A stretch of 32,000 bases of DNA from Cupriavidus necator (GTDB taxonomy: Bacteria; Pseudomonadota; Gammaproteobacteria; Burkholderiales; Burkholderiaceae). The notes beneath the pieces were generated by a model, which worked only from the letters and a program-made list of their open reading frames with translations, was not told the origin of the DNA and searched no databases. The stretch covers positions 3,360,001 to 3,392,000 of the forward strand of contig NZ_CP066018.1 in NCBI RefSeq assembly GCF_016127575.1, written 5' to 3'. Positions 2,712 through 28,722 of the stretch are shown piece after piece. Numbering within the stretch: position 1 is the stretch's first letter; each line of letters begins with the position of its first letter. The translations under genes were made by a program, and so were the position numbers.

Positions 2712-4499
2712 CTAAGCAGGTTCCCATGTCTGGCCCAGTGACCGGACGCACTCATCCACGCTCAGTTCATGCAGTGACTCGCGCGGCAGCGTTTCGCTGG
2801 CCGCGCGTGTCAGGACAGCCAGCACGGGCGGCTTAAGCCGCACCAGCAGCAGGCGCTGGCCTTTGGCGGCCACCTCGGACGCGAAAGTATGCAGCGCCTC
2901 GATCGTCGAGCCATCGATGTCCGGCGTCTCCTCCATGCTGAAAACAAGCGTATGGAGCCCCGGCCCGGCTGCCTCGTGCAGGTGTCGCGCCCTGGCCAGC
3001 ATGCGTTCCGCATTGGCGAAGAACATCGGCGCTTCCGGCCGAACGATCAGCACGCCCGACAGAGTCCGGGCTTCAGGGTGAGCCGCGATGTCAACGTAGT
3101 CGTGGCTAGAGCCAAGGCGCCCCAATTCGCTGACTCTTGGTTCGGAGAAGCTACGCAGTGTCAGCATCAGGCTGATCCCGATTGCCACCAGCAGTCCGTC
3201 GAGCACGCCAAGCAGGACCACGGCGACACATGCGGCAACCACCAGCAGCCGGTCGCGGCGCCATGTCCAGTAGGGCCTGAATGCATCGAGACGCAACGTA
3301 TGGCTCACGGCATGTATCACGATGGCCGCGAGCACGGGCTCGGGCGTGCGTGCAAGCTGCGGCAGCAGCGCGGCAACAATCAGCGCGATGACTGCTGCGG
3401 CGCACCAACCCGCCAGGCGAGACTGTGCTCCGGCTGCTTCATTTGCAGACGTGGCGGAATAGCCCGCCCCGACTGCCATGCCATGTAGCAAACCGGAGCC
3501 AATATTGGCCAGACCTAGTGCGACCAGGTCGCGGTTGGGTGAGGTCACATCACCGTACTTGAGCGCAAAGCTGCGGATCGAGCCGTACGATTCCGCATAC
3601 AGGATCAGCACCAGCGCGAAGGCGAGCTCGCCAACGCGCAACCACTGTATGCGCTGCAGGTCGGGCAGGCCGATGGTGACATTTGCCAGATCAATCGTGC
3701 CCACTTCGGCAATGCCGTAGTGCGACAGATCGGTGGCATAGGCTGCTGTGATGCCCAGCACGATCACCACCAGCGGTCCCGGCACCCGCCGCAAGCGCGC
3801 CAGCGCGAACAACAAAGCCAGCGCCGCCAGGCACGCGGCGAGCGCATTGAGGTTCCAACCCGCCGATTCGTGCAGGAACTGGTAAGTGAAACGTGGCAGG
3901 TCGCTGTGCGTCGGGTGGATCCCGGCGATGCTCGAAATTTGCCTGAGAATGATAATGACCGCTAGTCCGAATGTGAAGCCGCGCAGCACCGGCTTGGCAA
4001 TGAAGTCGGTAATGCCGCCCAAACGCGCTATGCCCGCCAGCACCAGGAAGACACCGGCCAGCGTCACGAACCCGGCGGCGAGCGCCAGGCGCAGCGCGGC
4101 ATCGGCACCGCTAGTCGACAGCGTGGCCGCGGCCAGCACCGCAGCAGAAGATGAGGTGGCCGACACCACCGCGAAGCGGCTCGTGCCCACAATGCCGTAT
4201 ATCACCAGCCCGACTAGCAGGCCGACCAAGCCAGCTTGCGCAGGCAGATTGGCGATGCCGGCGTATGCAACGGCTTCCGGCAAAAGCAGACCGGCAATAG
4301 AGCAGCCGGCGATCACATCTCGCCCGAGCCGTTGGCTTCGTGTCAGCGCCACGTCATTGGCCCTGCCGGTATCCGGCGGGGTGGACGAACCGGGGGCATC
4401 AGACGCAGGACACATAGTCGATGTAGTTCGGGCGATCGGCGGTCCGCTTATTCTGCCACTGATAGATGCCATCGAAATGACTTCGGCGTCGTTGCACAC
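2712..4499 (-). CDS. SulP-family anion transporter with C-terminal STAS domain
   Basis: Polytopic hydrophobic core with the SulP-like N-terminal motif (LLLPEAVAYAGIANLP). The C-terminal STAS-like region includes VLIVRPEAPMFFANAE...IDGSTIEAL. The start is uncertain: GTG 4499, ATG 4472 or ATG 4415. Confidence 0.85.
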   Translation of the reverse strand: MCNDAEVISMASISGRISGPPIARTTSTMCPASDAPGSSTPPDTGRANDVALTRSQRLGRDVIAGCSIAGLLLPEAVAYAGIANLPAQAGLVGLLVGLVIYGIVGTSRFAVVSATSSSAAVLAAATLSTSGADAALRLALAAGFVTLAGVFLVLAGIARLGGITDFIAKPVLRGFTFGLAVIIILRQISSIAGIHPTHSDLPRFTYQFLHESAGWNLNALAACLAALALLFALARLRRVPGPLVVIVLGITAAYATDLSHYGIAEVGTIDLANVTIGLPDLQRIQWLRVGELAFALVLILYAESYGSIRSFALKYGDVTSPNRDLVALGLANIGSGLLHGMAVGAGYSATSANEAAGAQSRLAGWCAAAVIALIVAALLPQLARTPEPVLAAIVIHAVSHTLRLDAFRPYWTWRRDRLLVVAACVAVVLLGVLDGLLVAIGISLMLTLRSFSEPRVSELGRLGSSHDYVDIAAHPEARTLSGVLIVRPEAPMFFANAERMLARARHLHEAAGPGLHTLVFSMEETPDIDGSTIEALHTFASEVAAKGQRLLLVRLKPPVLAVLTRAASETLPRESLHELSVDECVRSLGQTWEPA

Positions 4500-4644: not shown

Positions 4645-5047
4645 ATGCATTCAATCCTATTCCACCAGGCAATGGCACTGACCTTGGCGGCGACCGCCAT
4701 GGCCCTGTGCCATGCGCAGGAATTGCCGCTCCAGGCACCGCGCAGATCCGCGAATCGGCCGGGATCCTTTATGTTTCCGGTGGCGTCGGCACGGAAGACG
4801 TGGCGCGCATGAAAAAAACTGGCGCCGCGCTTTAATGCCAGAATCCGCTTCCAGGACAATGCCACTGGGCGTGGATGCCCGCGCCCGGCGTCCGGGTCGT
4901 CAACCGCAACCACACGTGGCCCGCCTGCGCTTCGTCGAGGCGGTTCTTCTCTGCTTCGTTGCTCATGGCGATTCTCATCTCGCAAGGTGGCGGGCGCCAG
5001 GTGCGTACCGGGCAGCCATCTTATGGGACTCTTGCTTGCATACGTGA
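4645..5047 (+). pseudogene. decayed paralog of the CarboxypepD_reg-like secreted proteins at 6156-6722 and 25927-26406
   Basis: ATG 4645 has GAGGAA 6 nt upstream and an intact signal peptide (MHSILFHQAMALTLAATAMALCHAQ). Homology to the intact paralogs then hops between frames. SAGILYVSGGVGTEDVARMKK is in frame 0, LAPRFNARIRFQDNATGRG in frame 1, PGVRVVNRNH in frame 0 and APGAYRAAILWD in frame 2. The 3' part is cut off where the low-GC DoxX block starts (~5021). Confidence 0.5.
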
Positions 5048-5437
5048 CGATTCAATGGCGAATACCACCAGCATGCCGCCCAGGATTGAGACATTCTTCA
5101 GAATGTGGTTAAGCTGATTCATGAAGTCTGCGGGATCGGCGCGCCAGAAGCCATGGAAGATGATGGTGGTGGGTACCAGGAACAGTGCAAGAAGCAGCGC
5201 GCCCAAGCGTGCGCTCCAGCCCGAGATCAAAGTCAGTCCACCACCAATTTCAACTGCGATGGTTAGCACCAGCAGCAAATCCGGGCTCGGCAGTTCAGCG
5301 CTGGCAATCCACGCAGAATAGGCCGCGAAGCTGCCAATCTTCAGGAGTCCGGAAAATAAAAAAAGAGAGCCGAGAAGCGCACGACCGACAGAGTACGTTC
5401 GTGAAACGACCGTGGGCGCGAGTGACATAGTGGTCAT
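5021..5437 (-). CDS. DoxX-family membrane protein
   Basis: Four hydrophobic helices with DoxX-like text (LLGSLFLFSGLLK ... EIGGGLTLISGW ... LLLALFLVPTTIIFHGFW). ATG 5437 is preceded by GGAGA. Codon usage is atypical, with low GC3. Confidence 0.8.
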   Translation of the reverse strand: MTTMSLAPTVVSRTYSVGRALLGSLFLFSGLLKIGSFAAYSAWIASAELPSPDLLLVLTIAVEIGGGLTLISGWSARLGALLLALFLVPTTIIFHGFWRADPADFMNQLNHILKNVSILGGMLVVFAIESSRMQARVP

Positions 5438-5485
5438 GACCATCTCCAAAACGAAGAGCGGTTGCAGCCAAGAGCCAGTCCCCAA

Positions 5486-5972
5486 TTAGGAGTCCCGCTC
5501 CTTTTCCTTGCCGGTGCCGTCATCCCAAGGGCGGACCACCTTGGCCGAGCGTGGCGAGCCGCCCGAGATAATCCGTGCAGCGGCCGCTGACGGGCGAAGG
5601 ATCGAACGGACGATTTTCCGGTAGCGGTGCGCCACCTTCATGAGTGCCGGGAGCTTGATCCGCTTCACGGTGCGGACGTTCAGTGCTCCCTGCACGCCGG
5701 ATGGCCGCGATCAGCATGTGGCTCCGCGCCGCCAGCAAAGTCTCCTCAAATCGCGCCATTGCCTCTGACAGCAGATTCAACTCGACCTGGCTCTTGGCGT
5801 CGTCCGCCTTGCAAGCATCAATCTCGGTGTAGATGCGCTTGCCGAGCTCACGCACGAGAACAGGATCGAGCTGTCCTTGAGATGCTGCGTGACTCAGGTG
5901 AAACAGCAGGGTGATCAATCCGTTCGGAGTGGAACGGGGTGGCGAAGCTGTGCTCATTTGTTGCCCCAACAT
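5486..5972 (-). pseudogene. hypothetical helical protein with an apparent frame discontinuity near 5690-5700
   Basis: ATG 5972 has GGAGA 5 nt upstream. The N-terminal ~90 codons read well in the frame of ORF 5520..5993. Downstream of ~5695, high GC3 moves to the frame of ORF 5486..5695 (basic tail ...VKRIKLPALMKVAHRYRKIV...). The original frame becomes low-GC3, low-complexity text. Confidence 0.35.
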
Positions 5973-6155
5973 TGCAGTCTCCACATTTGGCAAGCCACTG
6001 GCTATAGGATCTGGAAAATCCCGGAGTTTTGGCTACATCAAAGAAAAGATTGACAGGCCATTGGCCCGCAACGATGCGTGCCGGCTTCGTATGCGTTTGG
6101 CTGTCACGACACGTGCGCCGCCTTGCAGCCGGTGCCCTTCGCAATGAGGCCTTTC

Positions 6156-6722
6156 TTATGTGGGAGTCGGGTACTGGGGCGTTCGTGTCCGTGCGTGCAG
6201 CCAGTCTCGTTCCAGGTGGATCAGGTTGAAAAGAAATGTGAGGTCCATCGGCTCGGCTTCGGCCGTAATCCATTGCTCGTGATCGACGTCTTGATAAATC
6301 AGCGTCAGGTAATAGCGGCCGTGAGGCAGTTTGAGGTAGACCAGGGGACCGTCCGAGACCAGCCGTAGCAGGCGGTTGCCCTGTTCGTTGACCAGGATCA
6401 GTGTGACGCCAGAAACGGGGTTGCCTTCTGAAGGATCCTGGAAGCTGAGCCGCACATTGAATTGGCCGGCGATAGCCTGCATTTGCCGCAAGCCTTCGCG
6501 CCCCATCCCGCCCGAGACATACCGGACGCCAGCGGATTGGTGGATTTCCGGCGGCGTTGGATGCGTTGCGAGGATCTGCGCGTGGAGAAGCGGTGCGGTA
6601 CCAAGGAGCAGCGCGGCGGCAGCTGCACGCTCAACCTTGCTGGCGCGCATTGCAAGTGATCGATGGTGGCTAACGGGAGCCTGGAGGTTTTCCTCGTGTC
6701 CACGCTGCAGCTTCGCGGTCAT
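6156..6722 (-). CDS. secreted CarboxypepD_reg-like (beta-sandwich) domain protein, paralog family member 1
   Basis: ATG 6722 is preceded by AAAGGAGGA and a hydrophobic signal-like segment ends in LLHAQ. The conserved YVSGG block and a G-x-V-x-L ... G-x-Y-x-L pattern are typical of carboxypeptidase regulatory-like domains. It is clearly paralogous to 25927-26406. Confidence 0.7.
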   Translation of the reverse strand: MTAKLQRGHEENLQAPVSHHRSLAMRASKVERAAAAALLLGTAPLLHAQILATHPTPPEIHQSAGVRYVSGGMGREGLRQMQAIAGQFNVRLSFQDPSEGNPVSGVTLILVNEQGNRLLRLVSDGPLVYLKLPHGRYYLTLIYQDVDHEQWITAEAEPMDLTFLFNLIHLERDWLHARTRTPQYPTPT

Positions 6723-7069
6723 GACAATCCTCCTTTGCGGCGCGCAAAATATCGCCCGTCTATTTTGAAGCGTAGGTCGCATGCGCACTGTCCCATTGAT
6801 GCATCGCAAACGAGATACCAAATACATTCAGCCGCCTTCCCCTGGGAGCAGTACTCGGTGGCGAACTCGCGGATCGCGCCGTCAGAGGTTTGTCCTGAGC
6901 CCATGTAACCGGCGATCGTGGCGGCATTGCCGGAACGGGCAATGCGCACGGACGAGTGCGTGTGCGCACACCCGGCCGTATTGCCTGAGCATGCGGTATC
7001 CCAGTTCTCGATGACCGCCGACAGCTTCATGTCGCGCACTGGCGTATATAGAAGTGGTGTCCCCTCCAT
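6719..7069 (-). CDS. hypothetical Cys-containing small protein (8 Cys, no signal peptide)
   Basis: This is the only ORF with coding-like GC3 between the ATPase and the downstream gene. Its TGA overlaps the ATG of 6156-6722 (ATGA), which suggests translational coupling. The start is uncertain (7069 or ATG 7030). Confidence 0.45.
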   Translation of the reverse strand: MEGTPLLYTPVRDMKLSAVIENWDTACSGNTAGCAHTHSSVRIARSGNAATIAGYMGSGQTSDGAIREFATEYCSQGKAAECIWYLVCDASMGQCACDLRFKIDGRYFARRKGGLS

Positions 7070-7158
7070 GCCCTATTGGCTTCTGTGGGAAGAGCGGCGC
7101 CTGTGCTCCGTGGCCAACGGGGTGATGGAATTCTGAGTTGGCGAGCACCGGTCTCCCG

Positions 7159-9873
7159 CTACAGCTTGCACCGCCGGCTCCACCATTTGTCCAGCTCCAC
7201 TGCAATCGTCAATGTGAGCGCGAGCGACAACAGTCCAGCCCACGTCGTAGCCGACACAGGTGTGAGACCGAGCGTGTCGCTTAGCCCGGGTATGTACATG
7301 GCAGCGATATGGAGTAACTGGGCAGCCAGTACGCTGACCACCAGCATCGGATTGGCGAAGACCCCCTGTCGGAATACGGAGTGGCGCTCTGAACGGCTAC
7401 TAAACGTCTGCAAGTTCTCAAACAGCACAAACAGCAGCAGCAATTGGTTGCGTGCCTCGTTTAGGGGATAGCCGCGGTCGAGCAGCCAGTAGAAAGTTGC
7501 AAATCCCCCTACGCCCATGACAAGAGTCGAATAGCAGATGCGGCGGATCATTACGCGGTCAAAGATCGGCTCCCGGGGCTTGCGCGCCGGATATGACAGT
7601 TCGTCGCCTTCCGCATGCTCGGTAGCCAGAGCCACATCCTGGATGCCATTGGTCACGAGGTTGAGCCACAGCAGCTGCACCGGCAGCAATGGCATTGGCA
7701 GGCCCAGGGGAATCGCCAGCAGAAACAGAACCATTTCGGCCGCGCCCGTGGAAACCACCATGAAGATGACTTTGCGAATGTTCGCGTACGCCACCCTGCC
7801 TTCATTTATGCCGTTGACGATGGACGCAAAGTTGTCATCGGTGAGGACTATGTCTGCGCTTTCCTTCGCTACTTCAGTTCCCTTTCGGCCCATGGCCACA
7901 CCGACGTGTGCGTGCTTGAGCGCAGGAGCGTCGTTGACGCCGTCGCCGGTGACCGCCACGAAATGGCCGGTTCTTGCCAGCGACAGGACAATGGACAGCT
8001 TCTGATCCGGACTGACGCGGGCGTAGATGCGCGCACGGCGGGTCAGTTGGTCGAGTCCGTGCGGCCCCTTGCTCTCGGCCTGGCGCACCTGCTCGCCCGT
8101 CACGACCTGGTCCGTGGTAAAGCGCAGCCCCGCCTGCGCGCCAATTGCGCTGGCTGTCAACGGATCGTCGCCAGTCACCATCGCCACGTCGATGCCGGCG
8201 CTGTAGCAGCGTCGGATAGCGTCCGGGACCTCCGGGCGAACCGGATCCTTCATGCCTGCCATTCCCAGAAAGGTCAGGTTGACCAGGTGCCCGTGTCCGT
8301 AGGACCCGTCCGGCTCCGCATCAATCGTGCCTTCTGCGAACGCCAGCACGCGTAGTCCTTGCGCGGCCAGCGCTGCCTTTTCCCGAAGCAGTCCTTCGCG
8401 CCGGATCGGCACGGCATGGCCGCGAACGTCCGCCTGGTCGCACATGGCAATCAGAGTCTCGGGCGCTCCCTTGACGAACACGCGGATCGTCTCTTCGTGC
8501 CGGTGGAACGAGGCCGCGTACCGCAGGTCTGGCTCATACGGGATACGGGCCACCAAGGGGTACCGCTGTCGGATCTCATTGGCTACGGTGCCCCCCTTGT
8601 GCGCTGCGGCCAGCAGCGCCACGTCCACGCTGTCCCCGGTGCCAGTCCAGCCATCACGCTCCCTGGATAGTTGGGCCTCGTTTGGCAGCGCCGCGGCCCT
8701 TAGCAGGGCCGCTACCCGCGTTCTCGCGTCATGGTCGGTGGTGCCGGCGGCGCGGATCGTGCAGTTGTCCAGATCGTGTCCGACGTCGCAGCAAAACGCC
8801 GTGCCGTCGGGAAGCCGGATATCGGTGACGACAAGCTCGTTCATGGTCAGGGTGCCGGTCTTGTCGGTGGCGATCATCGTGCAGGATCCAAGCGACTCCA
8901 CGGCGGGCATTTTGCGCACGATCACATGGGCCTTCGCCATCCGCCGCATGCTGATCGCCAGCGCCACCGAAATGGCGACGGGCAGTCCTTCGGGGATCGC
9001 GCTTACCGCCAGTCCGACCGACATCATGAACAGTTCGCGCAATGCCATGCCGCGCAGCATACCCACCAACACCAGCAACGCCACAGCCACGCCTACCGCC
9101 ACCGCGATCAGTCGGGAAAAACGCTGGAGCCTGAGAATCAAAGGTGGCTGCGAGATGGATTCGCGGCCCAGTTCCCGCGCAATCCGGCCAATTTGCGTGG
9201 CAGCGCCAGTTGCCACGACGATGCCGTGGCCCCTGCCGCGGAGCACCACCGTGCCGGCGAAGGTCAGGCACTGGCGGGCGCTCGCTGGGGCGTTGCTGGC
9301 ATCACATGCTGAGAGCTTGCGCACCGGCAGCGATTCGCCAGTCAGCAGGGATTCATCGCACTGCAGGTCAATGGCGGAGGTCAGTTCCAGGTCGGCCGGC
9401 ACTCGGTTGCCGGCTTCCAGCACCACCAGGTCGCCCGGTACCAGCGTACTTGCATCGATCTCCTGCTGGATGCCGTCCCGGATCACCGTGGCACGGGGCT
9501 GCTCCATCCTGCGCAGCGCCACGGCCGCCTTGTCGGCCGTATGCTCCTGTGCGGTGCCGATGACGCCGTTAATCAGCAGTACTGCCCCGATGAACAGTGC
9601 ATCCTTCAGGTCACCCAACGCGAGCGACACCGCTGCCGCGGCCAGGAGAATGTAAATAAGCGGACTGAGGAACTGGCGCAGAAACACCGCGGCCACCGAC
9701 CTAGGGGCCGCCTGAGGCAGCACATTGCGGCCCACCTCGGCCAGCCGCGCATTAGCCTGCGCGGTGGTCAGGCCGGGTGGGACATGTCCCGGATCGACGC
9801 GATCCCGGGTGCCGGAATGTTCTTCGTGAGATCGGGGGCGATCCGTTTGCAACGCGCTGGAGCGATTTTGCAT
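7159..9873 (-). CDS. P2-type cation-transporting P-type ATPase (Ca2+/Mg2+-ATPase-like)
   Basis: Motifs DKTGTLT, PEGLP, MVTGD and TGDGVNDAPAL are present. There is an N-terminal Cation_ATPase_N-like segment (GLTTAQANARLAEVGRNVLPQ) and 10 TM-type hydrophobic blocks. ATG 9873 is preferred over ATG 9987 because the longer form would start inside the promoter/FNR-box region. Confidence 0.92.
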   Translation of the reverse strand: MQNRSSALQTDRPRSHEEHSGTRDRVDPGHVPPGLTTAQANARLAEVGRNVLPQAAPRSVAAVFLRQFLSPLIYILLAAAAVSLALGDLKDALFIGAVLLINGVIGTAQEHTADKAAVALRRMEQPRATVIRDGIQQEIDASTLVPGDLVVLEAGNRVPADLELTSAIDLQCDESLLTGESLPVRKLSACDASNAPASARQCLTFAGTVVLRGRGHGIVVATGAATQIGRIARELGRESISQPPLILRLQRFSRLIAVAVGVAVALLVLVGMLRGMALRELFMMSVGLAVSAIPEGLPVAISVALAISMRRMAKAHVIVRKMPAVESLGSCTMIATDKTGTLTMNELVVTDIRLPDGTAFCCDVGHDLDNCTIRAAGTTDHDARTRVAALLRAAALPNEAQLSRERDGWTGTGDSVDVALLAAAHKGGTVANEIRQRYPLVARIPYEPDLRYAASFHRHEETIRVFVKGAPETLIAMCDQADVRGHAVPIRREGLLREKAALAAQGLRVLAFAEGTIDAEPDGSYGHGHLVNLTFLGMAGMKDPVRPEVPDAIRRCYSAGIDVAMVTGDDPLTASAIGAQAGLRFTTDQVVTGEQVRQAESKGPHGLDQLTRRARIYARVSPDQKLSIVLSLARTGHFVAVTGDGVNDAPALKHAHVGVAMGRKGTEVAKESADIVLTDDNFASIVNGINEGRVAYANIRKVIFMVVSTGAAEMVLFLLAIPLGLPMPLLPVQLLWLNLVTNGIQDVALATEHAEGDELSYPARKPREPIFDRVMIRRICYSTLVMGVGGFATFYWLLDRGYPLNEARNQLLLLFVLFENLQTFSSRSERHSVFRQGVFANPMLVVSVLAAQLLHIAAMYIPGLSDTLGLTPVSATTWAGLLSLALTLTIAVELDKWWSRRCKL

Positions 9874-9989
9874 GAGGTTTCCCAAGGTATGCCGGGCGCG
9901 GAGCCACGCGTGCACACCCTGGGCGTACGCCACGTGCGGCGGGCGGGTCCGGACACTGTTCAAGCGTAGGTACTCGCGTTTCCGCATGA

Positions 9990-10003
9990 TTGATCCGGAT
10001 CAA
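9990..10003. promoter_or_regulatory. perfect FNR/Anr box TTGATCCGGATCAA in a divergent promoter region
   Basis: 10/10 match to TTGAT-N4-ATCAA. A -10-like TAGACT (10025-10030) lies on the + side. A TACGCT (complement of 9963-9968) lies on the - side. Both sit about 21-22 nt from the box edge, which is class II geometry. Confidence 0.75.
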
Positions 10004-10097
10004 CCACCACCCGGTTCCCCCTCCTAGACTGGCTGTATCGGCCAGCGGCACCCGTGGCGGGGCCAACGGCCTTGCGCAAGCGTCAAAGGACACCAGC

Positions 10098-11456
10098 ATG
10101 CAACTGCAATTCCTCGGCGCGACCGATACGGTCACCGGCTCCAAGTACCTGCTCGATACCGGCCGTCACCAGGTCATGGTCGACTGTGGCTTGTTCCAGG
10201 GATACAAGACCCTGCGCCTGCGCAACTGGGACCCACTGCCGCTCGATCCGGCCAAGCTCGACGCCGTGGTGCTGACCCATGCCCACATCGACCACAGCGG
10301 GTATTTGCCCCTGCTGGTGCGCAACGGCTTCCGCGGCAGCGTGCACTGCACCATGGGCACCGCGCAGCTGTGCGGAATCCTGTTGCCAGACAGCGCCCAC
10401 CTGGCGGAAGAAGACGCCGATTATGCGAACCGCAAGGGCTTCTCGCGTCATCGGCCCGCATTGCCTCTTTACACAGCAGCCGACGCTGCACGAGCAATGC
10501 GGCGGCTCCAGCCGATGCAGTTCGGCAAGCGCTTCCAGGTAGTGCCCGGCGTAGAGGCCGAGTTTGCCCGGGCCGGACATATCATCGGCGCGGCTATCGT
10601 CACGTTGTTCGTCGACGGCAAGCGCATCGTCTTCTCAGGCGACCTCGGGCGGCAGCAGGACATCGTCATGCGCGCGCCGGAGATGGTGCGTCAGGCGGAT
10701 TACCTGCTGGTGGAGTCAACCTACGGCGACCGGCGGCATCCGGACGACGACCCGCTCGATGTGCTCGGCGAGATCGTCAGCCGGACGATTGGCCGCGGCG
10801 GCAGCTTGATCATCCCCGCTTTTGCGGTAGGGCGCACGCAGAGCCTGCTGTACTGCCTGCACCGCCTGCGCGAACTCAAGCGAATCCCCGACGTGCCGGT
10901 GTACCTCAACAGCCCGATGGCCATCGACGCGACCATGATTTTCTCGCTGCATCCGGAAGAGCTGCGCATCAGCCGCGAAGAGTGCGCCGCAGCCTGCAAT
11001 CTCGCCACCCCGGTGCAGAGCATGGAGCAGTCGATCTGGCTGAACCACGACCGAAGTCCCAAGATCATCCTGGCTGGCAGCGGCATGGCTACCGGTGGTC
11101 GTGTGGTCCACCATATTGCCGCCTACGGCCCGGACCCTCGCAACACCGTTCTGCTTTCCGGCTTCCAGGCGGCGGGTACGCGCGGCGCAGCGCTGGCCGC
11201 AGGCCGGCGCGACATCCGCGTCCATGGCAAGGACATCGCCGTGCATGCGTCGGTGGAGCAGGTGGAGAACCTGTCCGCACATGCCGATGCCGCGGAACTC
11301 ATGACCTGGCTCGGCGGCTTTCACCAGGCGCCGCGGCGTACGTTTGTCGTGCACGGCGAGCCACAGGCAAGCGATGCGCTGCGCCAGCACATCGAGCGCG
11401 ACCTGCGCTGGGCGGTCACCATGCCGGAATATCGGCGCTCCTATCCGCTCGACTGA
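10098..11456 (+). CDS. beta-CASP family metallo-beta-lactamase-fold hydrolase (RNA-metabolising MBL type)
   Basis: N-terminus MQLQFLGATDTVTGSKYLL, with HxHxDH (THAHIDHSG) and beta-CASP-like motifs (VESTYGD, SAHAD, VVHGE). ATG 10098 has AAAGGA 7 nt upstream. Confidence 0.9.
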   Translation: MQLQFLGATDTVTGSKYLLDTGRHQVMVDCGLFQGYKTLRLRNWDPLPLDPAKLDAVVLTHAHIDHSGYLPLLVRNGFRGSVHCTMGTAQLCGILLPDSAHLAEEDADYANRKGFSRHRPALPLYTAADAARAMRRLQPMQFGKRFQVVPGVEAEFARAGHIIGAAIVTLFVDGKRIVFSGDLGRQQDIVMRAPEMVRQADYLLVESTYGDRRHPDDDPLDVLGEIVSRTIGRGGSLIIPAFAVGRTQSLLYCLHRLRELKRIPDVPVYLNSPMAIDATMIFSLHPEELRISREECAAACNLATPVQSMEQSIWLNHDRSPKIILAGSGMATGGRVVHHIAAYGPDPRNTVLLSGFQAAGTRGAALAAGRRDIRVHGKDIAVHASVEQVENLSAHADAAELMTWLGGFHQAPRRTFVVHGEPQASDALRQHIERDLRWAVTMPEYRRSYPLD

Positions 11457-12429: not shown

Positions 12430-12743
12430 TGTTGGCTTGCCGACATACCCGAGCCGCATCCTGAGCTAGTTTCCAACGTGCGTGGCTCAGCCGGTGTCGG
12501 CACACGGGTTGTGGCTCCGACGTCGCCGGTACCTGCGAATTTCCGGTTCTGAGCCGCATCTCGCTTCCCATGCCGTTGCCTTTCCGCGCACAAACTCTAT
12601 AGTCCATTGGCAAGGTAATAGTGACGAGAGCATGCCCCTGAAGGCGTCTTCATCCGCTCCGCAGGCGAGCAGCCTTGTCCAGAGTTCGCCCGACGATGGC
12701 TTTCGCCTGGTCGTGCGATTTCCGCGAGAGCAGGGGAACGGGC

Positions 12744-13391
12744 ATGACAAGGGTGATGATTGCGGATGACCATGCTGTGGTACGGGATGGCCTGCGGCAT
12801 ATCCTGGAACGGGCCGGTGTGTTCGAGGTCGTCGGCGAGGCGGCAGATGGTACACAAGTGCCCAGGATGGTACGGGAATGCACCCCGCAGGTGCTCCTGC
12901 TTGACCTTTCCATGCCTGGCAGGAGCGGGCTGGAACTGATCCGCTTGCTGCGCGGCGAGCACCCGGCCCTGCGCATCCTGGTCTTGACCATGCACGCCGA
13001 GGAGCAATACATCGTTCGTGCGTTCCAGGCTGGAGCGGCGGGCTATCTGACCAAGGAAAGCGCGGCTACGGAACTGGTGTCCGCCATCGGCCAGGTAGCC
13101 CGGGGCGGCACCTATGTGAGCCAGTCGATGGCCACGAAGCTGGCAAGCGGGCTGAAGGACCAGAGCGACGACCTGCCGCACCTGAGGCTCTCGGACCGCG
13201 AACTGGAAGTCTACCGGCGGCTGGTGCTGGGCGAGCCCATCACGGCGATCGCCACGGCACTGTGCGTCAGCGCCAAGACCGTGAGCACCTACAAGATGCG
13301 GCTGATGGAAAAAATGCAGATGCCCAATGAAGCCATGCTGTTGCGCTATGCCATGCGCAATCATCTGTTCGACGACGATGCGGACCTGTAG
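12744..13391 (+). CDS. NarL/FixJ (LuxR-type HTH) response regulator, canonical receiver
   Basis: The receiver has ADD (VMIADDH), the phospho-acceptor context VLLLDLSMPG, LVLT and YLTK. The C-terminal HTH is LSDRELEVYRRLVLGEPITAIATALCVSAKTVSTYK. ATG 12744 has AGGGGA upstream. No histidine kinase is in the window. Confidence 0.9.
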   Translation: MTRVMIADDHAVVRDGLRHILERAGVFEVVGEAADGTQVPRMVRECTPQVLLLDLSMPGRSGLELIRLLRGEHPALRILVLTMHAEEQYIVRAFQAGAAGYLTKESAATELVSAIGQVARGGTYVSQSMATKLASGLKDQSDDLPHLRLSDRELEVYRRLVLGEPITAIATALCVSAKTVSTYKMRLMEKMQMPNEAMLLRYAMRNHLFDDDADL

Positions 13392-13430: not shown

Positions 13431-13829
13431 CTATCGCCCCGAAGTCGCAGCCAGCCCGGCCAGGGTCTGGCGCAGCGCATCGAGTTCCAGCGTCTTGTCA
13501 AAGCAGTAGCTCCCGCCTGCCTTCAGGCAGGCGCGGCGCAGCGGCGGGCCGAGGTTGTCGGCCAGCACGATCACGATCGAATCCGGTAGCGTCGACCTCA
13601 GCGTCCTGACCTCCTGGAGCGCATGAGCATAGCCCGTGCCCAGGCTGATCAGGACGACGTCGGGGCGATGACGCAGGAGCGGGGCAAGTTCCGTGGCTGC
13701 GCTGGCGCCCGCACCCGCGACACGGATGCCAGGCATTCGCCCAAGCAGGCCGAGCTGCCTGGTTCGGATCGCATTGGCATGCTCGAGCAAGTACACGGTA
13801 AGCAGGCGGGCAGGATTGCGGTCTGGCAT
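13431..13829 (-). CDS. stand-alone receiver-like protein lacking the phospho-acceptor Asp (aspartate-less receiver)
   Basis: 132 aa with a receiver-like alternating pattern. It has YLLEHA in place of the acidic DD pair and PDVVLISLG in place of the DxxxLD acceptor. IVIVLAD and the conserved Lys context (YCFDK) are retained. Confidence 0.6.
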   Translation of the reverse strand: MPDRNPARLLTVYLLEHANAIRTRQLGLLGRMPGIRVAGAGASAATELAPLLRHRPDVVLISLGTGYAHALQEVRTLRSTLPDSIVIVLADNLGPPLRRACLKAGGSYCFDKTLELDALRQTLAGLAATSGR

Positions 13830-18821: not shown

Positions 18822-19244
18822 CTAACGGACGGTAATGCGTTGCTGGCTTGAGCTTTCCTTCTTGGGCAGCACCAGGCGCAGCACGCCGTCCTGGAAGCTG
18901 GCATCGATCTTTTCCGTGTCGATGTTGCCGTCCAGCGTAAAGGCACGCTGCATCGAGCCGCTGTAGCGCTCCTGGCGGATCACGCGGTCGCCTTCTTTTA
19001 CCTCGGAAGCTTTCTCGAGCTTGGCGGAGATCATCACAGTCCCACGGTCTACGCTGACGTTGATGTCTTCCTTCTTCACGCCTGGCAGGTCGGCGGTAAT
19101 GGTGAAGCTGCTGTCGGACTCGGCCACATCGACCTTGAATGGCAGCTCGGTGTCTGGCCCGATCCGCCAATTGCGTAGCATGCTCTGCAGCATGTCGCCG
19201 AGCGGTTCGATCGAGAACGGGTCGTAGCGCTTGATGTTGCTCAT
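18822..19244 (-). CDS. Hsp20/alpha-crystallin family small heat-shock protein
   Basis: Alpha-crystallin core text: PFKVDVAESDSSFTITADLPGVKKEDINVSV...ERYSGSMQRAFTLDGNIDTEKIDASFQDGVLRLVLPKK. AGGAGA lies upstream of the ATGATG start (19247/19244). Confidence 0.9.
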   Translation of the reverse strand: MSNIKRYDPFSIEPLGDMLQSMLRNWRIGPDTELPFKVDVAESDSSFTITADLPGVKKEDINVSVDRGTVMISAKLEKASEVKEGDRVIRQERYSGSMQRAFTLDGNIDTEKIDASFQDGVLRLVLPKKESSSQQRITVR

Positions 19245-19314
19245 CATGGTCTCCTGGATGACGGCGCCGTGCGCGCCGTGTTTTCTTACTTTGGCAAGCC
19301 GGGGCGGTTGCGGT

Positions 19315-19328
19315 TTGCTTTGCATCAA
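19315..19328 (-). promoter_or_regulatory. FNR box (reads TTGATGCAAAGCAA on the minus strand) upstream of hsp20
   Basis: 9/10 match to TTGAT-N4-ATCAA, 71 nt upstream of the hsp20 start in the hsp20/fnr divergent intergenic region. Confidence 0.65.
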
Positions 19329-19610: not shown

Positions 19611-20405
19611 ATGTTTGACTTGCATACTGAAGCTGATGCTGTTTGTGACGCCCCCAACATGTCCGTCGCGCTCTCCAGGCGTGAGGATGAGACGTTTGCG
19701 GAGCCGGCGCCGGATCCCGCGCGGGCGCGGTGCACAACTTGCATGATGCGGAACATCTGCATGGCCGCCAGCCTGGAGGCCGGCGAAATGGCCCGCCTGG
19801 ACTCCGTCGTGCGGAGCTGGCGTTCGGTCAAGCAGGGCGAACGGCTGTACCGGGCGGGCGACCCGTTCCGCAGCCTCTATGCGGTCCGCGTCGGCTCGTT
19901 CAAGACCGTGGTGGCGCCGGAGCGGGGCAAGGAGACCATCTCCGGCTTCTACATGGCCGGGGACTCAATCGGCATGGACGGCGTTTGCCAGGAAACCCAT
20001 AACTGCGATGCGATTGCCCTGGAAGACAGCGTGGTCTGCGTGATCCCGTTTCACCAGCTCGAGGCGCTATGCCGCGAGATCAAGCCGCTGCAACGCCACC
20101 TGCACAAGATGTTCAGTGCCGAGATCGTGAGGGAATCGCGCCAGATGATGCTGTTAGGCAACAACATGTCCGCCGAGCAGCGCGTGGCGGCATTCCTGTT
20201 GAACGTCTCGGCACGCTACCGCGAACGCGGCTATTCGGCCACGTCCTTTGTGCTGCGCATGACTCGTGAAGACATCGGCAGCTTCCTTGGCATGACCCTG
20301 GAAACCGTGAGCCGGACCTTGTCCAAGTTCCAGCAGGAAGGGCTGCTGACAGTGCAGGGCAAGTCCATCGAGCTGCTCAATCTGGACGCCCTGGACGCTC
20401 GCTAG
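19611..20405 (+). CDS. fnr: FNR/Anr-type oxygen-sensing CRP-family transcription regulator
   Basis: The N-terminal Cys cluster C-X2-C-X5-C ([11 protein letters not shown]) plus the fourth Cys in VVCVIPF matches the E. coli FNR C20/C23/C29/C122 pattern. There is a cNMP-like barrel and a recognition helix [11 protein letters not shown] (E--SR). ATG has GGAGA upstream. Confidence 0.93.
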
Positions 20406-22169: not shown

Positions 22170-22204
22170 CGGGCGGGCGGTCGGCCGGCCAAGGGGACTC
22201 TGGG

Positions 22205-22278
22205 CTTCGTTGACAGCCATCAACACGCATGCGCTTGCGACCGCTACTTTGGAAATAGCCCATAGCCGAAGCCGAGGT
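22205..22278 (+). repeat. promoter-plus-leader module, copy A (FNR box, -10, leader, SD-like GAGG)
   Basis: Aligns by eye with 25333-25405. 41/48 are identical from the box through the -10, and 16/18 in the segment ending GCCGAGGT. There is one indel in between. Confidence 0.7.
22210..22223 (+). promoter_or_regulatory. FNR box TTGACAGCCATCAA
   Basis: 9/10 match. A -10-like TACTTT lies at 22245-22250, 21 nt after the box. It is 217 nt upstream of the PNPOx-like gene. Confidence 0.65.
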
Positions 22279-22439
22279 AGCTGGGGGGAGAGGCAAGACA
22301 TGGGCCTGAACCAGCCATTGCTGTCGTGGAATGAAGAAGATGCGGGGCATTTGTCCAGGAACGTGCCGGCTGGAGATCGCTCCCCCGGCCGTGCCGGCCC
22401 CGTTGGTGTTGTTTGTACTGGCGTAACAGGTGACCAAAT

Positions 22440-22892
22440 ATGGACGAAGAGACCAGACAGAAGATCCTGACCTTGTTGAACCAACACAGGATCATGACGC
22501 TTGCCACCTTGAGGCCGGATGGCTGGCCTCAGGCTACCACTGTGGGTTATGTGAATGAGGGTCTCACGCTCTACTTCCTCTGTGGTCCGGGCAGCCAAAA
22601 GGCGGCCAATCTGGCATTGGATGACCGTGTCTCGCTGACAATTGATCACGACACGCCAGATCTCATGGCGATTACCGGCCTGTCCATGGCGGCGCACGCG
22701 CAACCGGTGGTCGATGTGGCCGTAGCGGAGAGAATCCTCCGGATGTTCCCATTGAAGTATCCGGAGCAGATTGCCTTGCCAGTGCCGATGCCAACCGCGG
22801 AGGACGTCCGAATATTCAGGGTGACCCCGACAGTCATTTCCGTGCTCGACTATTCCAAGGGCTTCGGACATACGGATCTTGTCAGCTGCTGA
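22440..22892 (+). CDS. pyridoxamine 5'-phosphate oxidase-family (FMN-binding split-barrel) protein
   Basis: 150 aa with ILTLLNQHRIMTLATLRPDGWPQATTVGY...LYFLCGPGSQKAANL...VSLTID, typical of small PNPOx-like flavoproteins. GC3 is lower than in the surrounding genes. Confidence 0.8.
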   Translation: MDEETRQKILTLLNQHRIMTLATLRPDGWPQATTVGYVNEGLTLYFLCGPGSQKAANLALDDRVSLTIDHDTPDLMAITGLSMAAHAQPVVDVAVAERILRMFPLKYPEQIALPVPMPTAEDVRIFRVTPTVISVLDYSKGFGHTDLVSC

Positions 22893-25281: not shown

Positions 25282-25332
25282 ACCCCTGGTGCAGCAGCCC
25301 TGCCATGAGCCGAATCACAGCGGTGTGGCTGG

Positions 25333-25405
25333 CTTGGTTGACTGGCATCAACCCGCATGTCCTTGCGACCGCTAATTTGGGATGAACCACAGCCAAAGCC
25401 GAGGT
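25333..25405 (+). repeat. promoter-plus-leader module, copy B
   Basis: See 22205-22278. In this copy the module ends 4 nt before the USP ATG at 25410. Confidence 0.7.
25338..25351 (+). promoter_or_regulatory. FNR box TTGACTGGCATCAA
   Basis: 9/10 match. A -10-like TAATTT lies at 25373-25378. It is 59 nt upstream of the USP start. Confidence 0.7.
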
Positions 25406-25409
25406 CGCC

Positions 25410-25874
25410 ATGTACCGCCGCATTCTCCTAGCCCTCGATGGCAGCCGTTCATCCTTGAATGCCCTGGAGCAGGCCGTGTCGATGGCGCTGACCACCGACG
25501 CCGAGGTCAGCGCCATGTTCGTCGTCGACGACAGCGACCTGTTCTTCGAGGTCAGCCCGGGTGACCGGCACTGGCTGATGGCCGACATCATTGCCTATGG
25601 CAAGCAGGTGCTGGCTCGTGCCGGCGAGCGCTTCAGCGCCGCCGGCGTGCGCTGGAGCAGCAGGTTGGCCGAGACGCCCGGCACCCCTGCGAAGATTGCC
25701 GAGGCGATCATCGCGGAAGCGGACCACTGGAGCGCGGACCTGATCGTCATGGGCACACACGGCCATCGCGGCGTGCGGCGCATGGTGCTGGGCTCGGTCT
25801 CGGAGCACGTGGTCAGCAAGACGGTTCGCCCCGTGCTGCTCGTTCGGCAGCAGTCGCGCGGCGATACGCCCTGA
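25410..25874 (+). CDS. universal stress protein (single USP domain)
   Basis: MYRRILLALDGS...ADLIVMGTHGHRGVRRMVLGSVSEHVVSKTVRPVLLVR, including the ATP-binding-type G-x2-G-x9-G-S motif. Confidence 0.92.
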   Translation: MYRRILLALDGSRSSLNALEQAVSMALTTDAEVSAMFVVDDSDLFFEVSPGDRHWLMADIIAYGKQVLARAGERFSAAGVRWSSRLAETPGTPAKIAEAIIAEADHWSADLIVMGTHGHRGVRRMVLGSVSEHVVSKTVRPVLLVRQQSRGDTP

Positions 25875-26652: not shown

Positions 26653-26666
26653 TTGACACGTATCAA
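26653..26666 (+). promoter_or_regulatory. FNR box TTGACACGTATCAA
   Basis: 9/10 match. A -10-like TACGCT lies at 26688-26693. It is 85 nt upstream of the USP start. Confidence 0.7.
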
Positions 26667-26750: not shown

Positions 26751-27203
26751 ATGTACCAGCGCATCCTTGTCGCCATGGACGGCGGCGCCGCATCGGAACT
26801 TGCCCTGGAACAGGCCATGATCATCGCGCGCGCCGCCAACGCCGAAGTGGAGGTGGTCCATGTGGTCGATGACCGCAGCCCGTTTCTGGATGCCAGCAAT
26901 CTGGATCCGGTGAGATTGATAGAGGACCTCACGACGGCGGGGCAAAGCGTTCTCGCTGCCGCCTCCGGCCGGCTTGCCGCAGCGGGTATTCGCCACGTAA
27001 CGCGGCTGCTCGGTAAGCCTATGGTCGAGGGCGACGTTGCTGCCACGATCGCTGCCGAAGCCAATGGCTGGGGCGCTGATCTGGTTGTGATGGGTACGCA
27101 CGGCCGCCGGGGAGTGCGGCGACTCGTCATGGGCAGCGTCGCGCGAAGCGTGATCAACCTGGCCGTCGCGCCCGTCCTGCTTCTCCGCGCCGAGGAAGCG
27201 TAA
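26751..27203 (+). CDS. universal stress protein (single USP domain)
   Basis: MYQRILVAMDGG...ADLVVMGTHGRRGVRRLVMGSVARSVINLAVAPVLLLR. GGAGA lies 7 nt upstream. Confidence 0.92.
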   Translation: MYQRILVAMDGGAASELALEQAMIIARAANAEVEVVHVVDDRSPFLDASNLDPVRLIEDLTTAGQSVLAAASGRLAAAGIRHVTRLLGKPMVEGDVAATIAAEANGWGADLVVMGTHGRRGVRRLVMGSVARSVINLAVAPVLLLRAEEA

Positions 27204-27585: not shown

Positions 27586-27804
27586 ATGAAGAATCGCTTG
27601 CAGTCATGCACACCGGAGAAACGGCCAGGATGGCGCAGGCTTGCCGCCTGCGCGTTGGTGCCGCTATGCACAGCGTGTACCGCCGTACCGGACCTGCTGC
27701 GGCCGCCGAAGCCACGCACCGCCGCGCTGGCGGCAGGCAGCCTGGGCCAACTCGTACCTGGTGCCAGCGGTATTGCCTGTAGCGCGGACACGAAGACGGC
27801 TTGA
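27586..27804 (+). CDS. small (72 aa) putative exported/lipoprotein-like protein
   Basis: Perfect AAGGAG lies 6 nt upstream of the ATG. The N-terminus is basic, followed by the hydrophobic segment LAACALVPLCTAC. Low complexity afterwards lowers confidence. Confidence 0.45.
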   Translation: MKNRLQSCTPEKRPGWRRLAACALVPLCTACTAVPDLLRPPKPRTAALAAGSLGQLVPGASGIACSADTKTA

Positions 27805-27814
27805 TGCACGACAA
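27801..27814 (+). promoter_or_regulatory. FNR-like box TTGATGCACGACAA
   Basis: 8/10 match. A -10-like TATAGA lies at 27834-27839. It is 69 nt upstream of the tandem USP start and overlaps the stop codon of the small ORF. Confidence 0.5.
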
Positions 27815-27882: not shown

Positions 27883-28722
27883 ATGGACTACGCAACGATC
27901 CTGGTTCATCTCGATGCCGGCCGCCGCGTGTACGACCGGCTGCACCTCGCGACCCGGCTGGCGCTGGAGTTTCATTCCACGCTGGTTGGCCTGCTAGCCG
28001 TCGGCAAGCCGGATCCCACCGCCGTGCGCTACCTGGTGGACGGTGACCGCAATCTTGCCTCTTACACCGAATGGCGGCATCAGGTCGGCGAGCGGGCCCG
28101 TCACGCCCTGATGGGCGCAACGGACGAGGTAACCGTCATTACGGAATGGCGGGCGCCGGACTGGGCCACGGCGGCAACGGTCCAGGCAGAGGCGCATCGG
28201 GCGGATCTTGTCATCCTCGGACAGCACGATCCCACTGATGAAGCCGCCTACGCCGAGCCCGGCTTTGTTGAATCCATTGTGCTGGGATGCGGGCGGCCGG
28301 TGCTGGTGGTTCCGTATGCGGGCCGGTTCCCGAGCGTTGGCAAGAACATCATGGTGGCGTGGAACGGCAGCCGCGAGTCGGCGCGGGCCATCCGCGATGC
28401 GCTTCCGCTCCTGCAGCGCGCGGGCACTGTGGAGGTGGTCTCGTGGACACCGTCTGGGGTTCTGAAGGGGACATGGGTTTCGCCGCCTCAGCATGCCGTG
28501 GACTGGCTGGGTCGGCATGGCGTGGCGGTGCAGCTTTGCACGTTTGGAGCGGAAGACGGCGAAGACGTCGGCCAGATGTTACTCTCACACGCCGCGGACC
28601 GAAATGCTGACCTGATCGTCATGGGGGCCTACGGGCACAGCCGGGTGCACGAGCTGGTCCTTGGCGGTGTCACCCGCACGTTGCTTGAGTCGATGACAGT
28701 GCCGGTCCTGATGTCGCACTGA
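27883..28722 (+). CDS. tandem-domain universal stress protein
   Basis: MDYATILVHLDAG ... GAYGHSRVHELVLGGVTRTLLESMTVPVLMSH. It is a paralog of 11516-12346. Confidence 0.9.
   Translation: MDYATILVHLDAGRRVYDRLHLATRLALEFHSTLVGLLAVGKPDPTAVRYLVDGDRNLASYTEWRHQVGERARHALMGATDEVTVITEWRAPDWATAATVQAEAHRADLVILGQHDPTDEAAYAEPGFVESIVLGCGRPVLVVPYAGRFPSVGKNIMVAWNGSRESARAIRDALPLLQRAGTVEVVSWTPSGVLKGTWVSPPQHAVDWLGRHGVAVQLCTFGAEDGEDVGQMLLSHAADRNADLIVMGAYGHSRVHELVLGGVTRTLLESMTVPVLMSH

Follow-up and report, generated by a model that had tools for sequence, protein, structure and literature searches.

A single FNR-type box predicted to serve two mirror-image divergent promoters in an lxa-like island of Cupriavidus necator

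The NNR box between nirI and nirS of Paracoccus denitrificans, described by Saunders et al. in 1999, is said to lie at -41.5 to both starts. Single sites for CRP and FNR proteins between divergent transcription units are a known theme, as in eleven divergent Escherichia coli pairs that have a single CRP site, including araBAD-araC, glpEGR-glpD and xylAB-xylFGHR (PMC3105977), in the model system for single-site divergent activation of El-Robh and Busby (2002), as cited in PMC3105977, and in Rhodobacter (R. sphaeroides), where FnrL sites lie between divergent operons (PMC2908626). The position of FNR sites relative to the start is also well described: 19 of 23 FNR-activated promoters of E. coli have the site at -41.5 ± 4 (PMC3688515), and fnr1 of the betaproteobacterium Herbaspirillum has an FNR site at -42 (PMC5934665). 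In Burkholderia cenocepacia J2315, the lxa locus carries an Anr/FNR-like motif at 17 intergenic points, and low oxygen raises the expression of BCAM0318, a cation ATPase, 15-fold and that of BCAM0300, a metal-dependent RNase, 30-fold (Sass et al. 2013; PMC3721108). Here we analyse a stretch of 32,000 nucleotides from Cupriavidus necator (contig NZ_CP066018.1, positions 3,360,001 to 3,392,000), called the window below, in which one FNR-type palindrome at 9990-10003 separates a gene for a P2-type cation ATPase from genes for a metallo-beta-lactamase (MBL)-fold RNase and a universal stress protein (USP). We propose that one FNR-type dimer at this palindrome probably activates two back-to-back class II promoters.

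The sequence TTGATCCGGATCAA, centred at 9996.5, matches the FNR/Anr consensus TTGAT-N4-ATCAA at 10 of 10 positions. Expected site counts were taken from simulated sequences generated by a first-order Markov chain with the window's own dinucleotide transitions; an exact box is expected 0.02 times per 32-kb window, and sites with at most one mismatch number five (9990, 19315, 22210, 25338 and 26653) against 0.29 expected. No second site with two mismatches or fewer lies between 9874 and 10097, so that 9990-10003 is the sole one in this 224-bp gap and a single candidate activator site separates both predicted promoters. The palindrome is thus a consensus inverted repeat in what we argue below to be non-coding promoter DNA, in a window that also encodes a regulator with an E--SR recognition helix. 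On the plus strand it is followed by TAGACT at 10025-10030, and on the minus strand by TACGCT, the reverse complement of 9963-9968. Each hexamer starts 22 nt beyond the edge of the box, 28.5 nt from its centre, and the mirror symmetry around 9990-10003 is therefore exact. The original prediction, made from the letters of this DNA, had claimed a 10/10 consensus site with -10-like hexamers at nearly the same distance on either side; direct matching bears out the first claim, and the second turns out to have been worded too cautiously.

The spacing of 22 nt is not peculiar to this box. When the 12 sites with at most two mismatches in the window were scanned in both orientations, a TANNNT hexamer was found exactly 22 nt past the box in seven box orientations, two of them at 9990, and almost nowhere else within 45 nt (Table 1). 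With a background TANNNT frequency of 0.0019 per position, the binomial probability of seven such cases is about 1e-11 to 1e-14. A gene start follows each of these hexamers at a distance of 35-180 nt, the genes being those for USPs, a PNPOx-like protein, a hypothetical protein, the MBL protein and the ATPase. The same preference emerged from a pooled set of 60 distinct boxes with at most one mismatch, drawn from the window and 76 related loci, including metagenomic ATPase homologues at 45-88% identity: 26 hexamers lie at offset 22 and seven at offset 23, with four or fewer at any other offset. Boxes with hexamers on both sides are, in this set, only the orthologues of 9990-10003. The motif CCTACGCT recurs at the same offset from boxes 9990 (minus orientation), 6796 and 26653; NarL-type heptamers were considered for this motif, did not fit TACYYMT and were rejected, and the motif is treated here as -10 context.

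If the hexamers are placed at -12 to -7 or -13 to -8, the centre of the box falls at -40.5 to -41.5 on both sides, and the spacing is the same at 33 pooled orientations. A sigma-70 consensus scan of 9800-10180 found no complete promoter with a -35 element, which is weakly consistent with promoters that depend on an activator. The leaders predicted from the -10 positions measure about 60 nt on the MBL side and about 83 nt on the ATPase side, and no known riboswitch or leader RNA was detected in either, the whole window being without a match in Rfam.

Conservation follows the same architecture. We aligned seven orthologous intergenic regions, comprising that of the window and those of L001, L002, L021, L022, L023 and the metagenomic L024. 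The box is invariant at 13 of its 14 positions, and the single variable base lies in N4. The two -10 blocks are invariant throughout, over 18 of 18 columns at 9955-9972 (minus-strand hexamer plus predicted start) and nine of nine at 10023-10031 (plus-strand hexamer). The two 21-nt spacers between box and hexamers are 48% and 57% invariant, with 56% for ordinary intergenic columns, and their lengths are kept in the seven orthologues except in L002 and L024, which have one extra nucleotide on the ATPase side. This insertion shifts the ATPase-side hexamer to offset 23, the second commonest offset in the pooled set. A conserved box and a conserved -10 element joined by a spacer that drifts in sequence at fixed length, on both sides, is the pattern that a functional class II promoter should show.

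The longest open reading frames (ORFs) on the two strands run up to the box, starting at ATG 9987 (minus strand, 942 aa) and at TTG 9990 (plus strand, 488 aa). The palindrome opens with the triplet TTG 9990, and ATG 9987 lies 3 nt from its other edge. If these were the true starts, the palindrome could be a chance or structural feature within real N-terminal extensions, with no regulatory role. Public annotation lends this view some support, given that the records shown for the identical ATPase locus (L014-L020) call a protein of 942 aa in six of seven cases and one of 904 aa in the other (L015), and that, at 0.84, the G+C content at third codon positions (GC3) in the putative extension of the ATPase reaches the level of coding sequence. 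GC3 is 0.72 in the putative extension on the MBL side, with medians of 0.76 (ATPase) and 0.83 (MBL) for the bodies of the genes, and does not separate coding from non-coding DNA here; because it is uninformative, indels and the loss of start codons were used to judge the gene starts. The segment 9874-9987 carries indels of 10, 3 and 1 nt among the orthologues, and 9990-10097 carries one of 1 nt. L022 has CTT and L002 has CAC in place of ATG 9987, the frame upstream of the MBL start is closed in L002 and L024, and the upstream reading frames vary between genomes. In contrast, ATG 9873, ATG 10098 and a Shine-Dalgarno sequence, AAGGA, at 10086-10090, 7 nt before ATG 10098, are invariant in the seven-sequence alignment, and the region of the Shine-Dalgarno sequence and ATG 10098 is invariant at 17 of 18 positions. 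Alignments to the short MBL protein begin at its residue 1 (MQLQFLGA) even for homologues from other phyla with as little as 45% identity, and every public record seen calls this protein at 452 aa; on the ATPase side, close relatives align to the 904-aa form from residue 1-3 and distant homologues from residue 34.

Since both segments carry indels that are not multiples of three, the long starts are lost in relatives and the short ones are conserved, we take 9874-10097 to be non-coding and both long starts to be artefacts, TTG 9990 being simply part of the box. Together with the rarity of an exact box in such a window, these observations effectively exclude a coding or chance origin of the palindrome, and they support ATG 9873 for the ATPase and ATG 10098 for the MBL protein as the real starts. 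The ATPase start is thereby corrected, most public records with this exact locus calling the protein 38 codons too long. The original prediction had already held the long starts to be wrong in favour of ATG 9873 and ATG 10098, with leaders of about 60-80 nt, and it is upheld by the indels, the start losses and the homologue alignments as well as by the leader lengths given above.

Table 1. Coordinates of the FNR-type box at 9990-10003, the predicted promoter elements and genes on either side, the candidate regulator, and further FNR-like boxes in the window
Feature	Coordinates	Strand	Basis or context
FNR/Anr-type box TTGATCCGGATCAA	9990..10003	both directions	consensus match, footprint
Predicted -10 TAGACT, MBL/USP promoter	10025..10030	+	offset 22; block 10023-10031 invariant; no -35 match
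Predicted -10 TACGCT, ATPase promoter	9963..9968	-	offset 22; block 9955-9972 invariant
Predicted transcription start 10037-10038 and leader of about 60 nt	10037..10097	+	inferred from -10 position
Predicted transcription start 9955-9956 and leader of about 83 nt	9874..9956	-	inferred from -10 position
P2-type cation-transporting ATPase, 904 aa	7159..9873	-	Pfam E1-E2_ATPase, Cation_ATPase_N, Cation_ATPase_C
Beta-CASP metallo-beta-lactamase-fold RNA-metabolising hydrolase, 452 aa	10098..11456	+	Pfam Lactamase_B, Beta-Casp, RMMBL
Universal stress protein, 276 aa	11516..12346	+	gene call; 60 nt downstream of MBL gene
FNR-type regulator, candidate box binder	19611..20405	+	Fe-S cysteines and E--SR helix; same island, 9.6 kb away
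FNR-like box, 2 mismatches, TACGCT at offset 22	6796..6809	-	upstream of 188-aa hypothetical gene (6156-6722)
FNR-like box, 1 mismatch, weak hexamer CAAAGT at offset 22	19315..19328	-	75 nt upstream of Hsp20/alpha-crystallin gene (18822-19247, -)
FNR-like box, 1 mismatch, TACTTT at offset 22	22210..22223	+	upstream of PNPOx-like gene (22440-22892)
FNR-like box, 1 mismatch, TAATTT at offset 22	25338..25351	+	upstream of USP gene (25410-25874)
FNR-like box, 1 mismatch, TACGCT at offset 22	26653..26666	+	upstream of USP gene (start near 26751, stop 27203)
FNR-like box, 2 mismatches, TAGATT at offset 22	27801..27814	+	upstream of USP gene (27883-28722)

The genes on the two sides of the gap were identified by their Pfam domains (Table 1). 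For the ATPase, the best NCBIfam models are of the Ca-type IIA, with scores below their cut-offs. The nearest species-representative homologue of the MBL protein is in a record labelled Ralstonia pickettii RAL3 chromosome 3 (98% amino acid identity), followed by Cupriavidus spp. The rightward unit, put forward earlier as an MBL-USP operon, does consist of an MBL gene followed by a USP gene on the plus strand, and can now be described more closely, the MBL protein being a beta-CASP RNA-metabolising hydrolase; no terminator-like site lies between the two genes, and we think that they are probably co-transcribed. Pfam places one Usp domain at residues 219-287 of a longer ORF of 289 aa, and the 276-aa USP is long enough for two.

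The window encodes its own candidate for the protein that reads the box. The product of 19611-20405 aligns over its full length to FNR of Aliivibrio fischeri (5CVR/5E44, E = 3e-52). Its cysteines, C41-x2-C44-x5-C50 and C143, align with the four Fe-S ligands (C20, C23, C29 and C122 in E. coli), and its recognition helix, ETVSR, aligns with ETISR of the A. fischeri protein, a helix that reads TTGAT. On this comparison, the likeliest binder of 9990-10003 is this protein or one of its paralogues. A less probable course, and in our view an improbable one, is that the box is bound mainly by another member of the CRP/FNR family, for example a nitric oxide sensor of the Dnr/NnrR type or a FixK-type protein under the control of FixLJ, so that the same architecture would answer to nitric oxide or to a phosphorelay. 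Cupriavidus and Ralstonia reportedly carry several fnr-family genes (PMC5934665), the regulator of the Burkholderia lxa locus is unassigned among three Anr-like candidates (PMC3721108), and B. dolosa has been described as using a FixLJ-FixK route (PMC9104464). Against such a regulator stands the complete Fe-S-type FNR gene inside the island, among genes that bear boxes; moreover, the island lacks denitrification genes, and its content (USPs, Hsp20, polyhydroxybutyrate (PHB) genes) corresponds to that of oxygen-limitation regulons.

Comparison with relatives shows how the shared box is distributed. Only one Cupriavidus-type clade (the window, L001, L002, L021-L024 and assemblies with the exact MBL protein) has the ATPase and MBL genes diverging from a single shared box. 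In other Cupriavidus genomes (L004-L007), a box with an offset-22 hexamer precedes a USP gene, and the MBL gene comes after that USP gene; in L003 a box belonging to the MBL gene itself is found 161-174 nt before its start codon. FNR boxes also occur upstream of genes for ATPase homologues at 64-88% identity. In a metagenomic relative (L025/L047, 77% ATPase identity, positions 2230-2400), the ATPase box is followed by TATGCT at offset 22, and the divergently oriented nitroreductase gene is preceded by another, weaker box whose hexamer, TACATT, is also at offset 22; this amounts to a two-box version of the arrangement. FNR boxes thus accompany ATPase and MBL genes in several lineages. Sharing one box looks like a derived state, and a compact one. 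One member of the clade has lost most of the ATPase gene: in L023 (pMTS1 of Cupriavidus sp. P-10, positions 3900-4160) a remnant of 37 codons is left and similarity to the window ends about 26 nt into the coding sequence, probably through a recent deletion or rearrangement, and the shared box and both -10 hexamers are intact despite this.

The TTGAT-N4-ATCAA palindrome at 9990-10003 would, in our model, be the shared activator site of two class II sigma-70 promoters that lack a usable -35 element. When oxygen is scarce, a [4Fe-4S]-containing, oxygen-labile dimer of the FNR/Anr type would bind there and recruit RNA polymerase to either side, with transcription predicted to start at about 10037 on the plus strand and about 9956 on the minus strand, some 82 bp apart, the centre of the box lying roughly 40.5-41.5 bp upstream of each. 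The leftward output would be the P2-type cation ATPase (from ATG 9873) and the rightward output the beta-CASP RNase and the USP (from ATG 10098), and both would belong to a low-oxygen regulon that spans the island and has its analogue in the Burkholderia lxa locus. Binding, oxygen dependence, the start sites and activity in both directions are predictions drawn from the features described above.

Several points weigh against this model. The 19611-20405 protein scores 224.6 bits against the NCBIfam Fnr model (NF008365), short of the cut-off of 228, this being its best model by a wide margin, and Cupriavidus carries several FNR-family paralogues that read the same box. Footprint P-values are only rough, because the orthologues are closely related (88% mean column identity) and non-independent. 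The -10 strings of these promoters are absent from the tables of transcription start sites (TSSs) for C. metallidurans CH34 (5,763 TSSs; Grosse et al. 2022), which come from aerobic cells of a strain to which the window is not shown to belong and are therefore neutral; the lone match to CCTAGACTGG in these tables belongs to another gene, Rmet_3096. A literature search found no TSS, expression, chromatin immunoprecipitation or electrophoretic mobility shift data for the locus, and no report for Cupriavidus on low-oxygen induction of such an island or its part in anoxic survival. Two polymerases about 82 bp apart may also exclude each other, and at E. coli nrf/acsP1, FNR bound at pnrf represses acsP1, the promoter divergent from the one that it activates (PMC5434802).

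The last two points bear on a narrower reading, in which the box is real but drives one gene only, the other hexamer being unused or its side repressed and the second gene being transcribed from an unrecognised promoter. The metagenomic relative fits such a picture, since its ATPase box has a hexamer on the ATPase side only and the divergent nitroreductase gene has its own second box. Yet both hexamers at 9990-10003 lie at the regulon-wide offset, for which the chance is about 0.002 per position, and neither changes in the seven orthologues, unlike the drifting spacers; the scan of the gap turned up no other promoter; and both gene types are box-associated elsewhere and low-oxygen-induced in Burkholderia. 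We therefore regard one-sided action as unlikely and favour activation in both directions by one dimer. Each promoter core overlaps the zone for the C-terminal domain of the polymerase alpha subunit (alpha-CTD) at the other promoter, so that the polymerases may have to alternate. A bolder proposal, which we offer as speculation and think doubtful as a whole, is that the exact mirror symmetry has a role beyond economy of binding sites, with one dimer serving one side at a time, which would give either a fixed or competing ratio of ATPase to RNase/USP or a stochastic alternation in single cells that enter hypoxic dormancy, and that the shared promoter arose by fusion of two FNR promoters in one Cupriavidus clade, within a self-contained hypoxia island, equipped with a regulator of its own, that passes between chromosome and megaplasmids.

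As to its surroundings, nearly the whole window (2700-31500) is an FNR-box-rich stress island with five USP genes and its own fnr. With guaA at one end, the window continues in a long run of genes of stress or hypoxia type, assigned with Pfam and NCBIfam: besides the P2-type ATPase, the beta-CASP MBL protein, the adjoining USP and the Crp/Fnr regulator, these encode a SulP/STAS transporter, a DoxX protein, a LuxR-type response regulator, an ADP-forming acyl-CoA synthetase-GNAT fusion, two BON proteins, a CBS protein, Hsp20/alpha-crystallin, a thymidine/AMP-phosphorylase-like protein, a PNPOx-like protein, a TPM protein, alanine dehydrogenase (Ald), three more USPs, PhaC and PhaB. The G+C content is about 65% in the window and dips to 0.58-0.59 at 5000-8000. 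The island (window 2600-27500) recurs at 59-82% coverage and about 91-93% identity on NZ_CP068436.1, NZ_CP073678.1 and NZ_AP025172.1, replicons of more than 1 Mb that are recorded as plasmids (C. necator C39, Cupriavidus sp. KK10 and P-10). Many NCBI assemblies encode the identical MBL protein, on contigs of 4.0-4.1 Mb. Judged by these plasmids on the one hand and the guaA-adjacent window and 4.0-4.1 Mb contigs on the other, the island is on different replicons in different strains. A literature search found no account of such a hypoxia island in Cupriavidus.

Further observations concern single genes and promoters of the island. The Hsp20/alpha-crystallin gene is missing from the list of longest ORFs, where it is masked by longer ORFs that overlap it, and the box at 19315, which lies upstream of it, is about 290 nt from the fnr gene, with no hexamer facing fnr. 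The promoters at 22210 and 25338 (22190-22300 and 25318-25420) are alike beyond box and -10 element, both reading ...CATCAAC.CGCATG..CTTGCGACCGCTA.TTTGG... then AGCC.AAGCCGAGGT.GC, and look like a duplicated module of promoter plus leader. At 25338 this module runs directly into the USP start codon, and at 22210 about 180 nt intervene before the PNPOx-like gene. Just downstream of the MBL and USP genes lies the gene for the response regulator, of the NarL/LuxR type (12675-13391, plus strand), which adjoins a small ORF with a weak receiver-domain match (13431-13829, minus strand); no histidine kinase was found among the window ORFs scanned against Pfam. The response regulator near the MBL and USP genes is reminiscent of control of the DosR type layered on an FNR regulon.

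The analysis provides a precise and testable promoter map for two putative hypoxia-linked operons, and an lxa-like, FNR-box-rich island in Cupriavidus bears on anoxic persistence. The rule of box, 22 nt and TANNNT is unusually clean in this island and could be used to predict the whole regulon. The gap at 9874-10097 also offers a natural template for asking whether two class II promoters that share one activator dimer cooperate, ignore each other or compete. No new mechanism is revealed, and a specialist would not be surprised by the arrangement. What the computational evidence supports well is a clean but ordinary case of a known design, in which an FNR box is shared by divergent class II promoters in an lxa-like island.

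The island invites comparison with two low-oxygen gene sets. At the domain level the window holds a cluster of the lxa type, in its gene content and in its seven box-plus-hexamer promoters, and it has in common with the B. cenocepacia lxa locus USPs, alpha-crystallin, a sulphate transporter, a cation ATPase, a metal-dependent RNase, polyhydroxyalkanoate (PHA) genes, an Anr-like regulator and a repeated intergenic FNR-like motif. It differs in genus and gene order, BCAM0318 and BCAM0300 not being neighbours in J2315, and in the motif, which is published as TGA-N6-TCA for lxa, whereas the Cupriavidus boxes match the full 5+5 FNR consensus; Cupriavidus goes unmentioned in the lxa paper (PMC3721108). 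USPs, alpha-crystallin, a nitroreductase (seen here in L025), a P-type cation ATPase (CtpF-like) and a sulphate transporter are likewise shared with the DosR regulon of Mycobacterium tuberculosis, an overlap in content that Sass et al. pointed out for lxa (PMC3721108). The DosR regulator is a response regulator of the NarL/LuxR type and not FNR, and it reads another DNA motif, so the likeness is one of functional analogy only.

At the level of the promoters, the closest relatives are the class II FNR promoters of E. coli, such as dmsA, narG and nirB. As in these, a TTGAT-N4-ATCAA box lies over the -35 position with the -10 hexamer as the only core element, the centre of the box is predicted at -40.5 to -41.5 (PMC3688515), and the cognate protein would have four cysteines and an E--SR helix. 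The Cupriavidus gap differs from them in having two mirrored -10 hexamers per box, in that its TSSs are predicted from the -10 positions, and in its host, a high-GC betaproteobacterium. With the single-site divergent systems of CRP and FNR proteins, it shares one dimer palindrome in the gap and promoters on both strands (PMC3105977, PMC2908626). It departs from those known systems in its targets, a cation ATPase on one side and an RNase with a USP on the other, in resting here on sequence evidence, and in a symmetry that is exact to the base pair.

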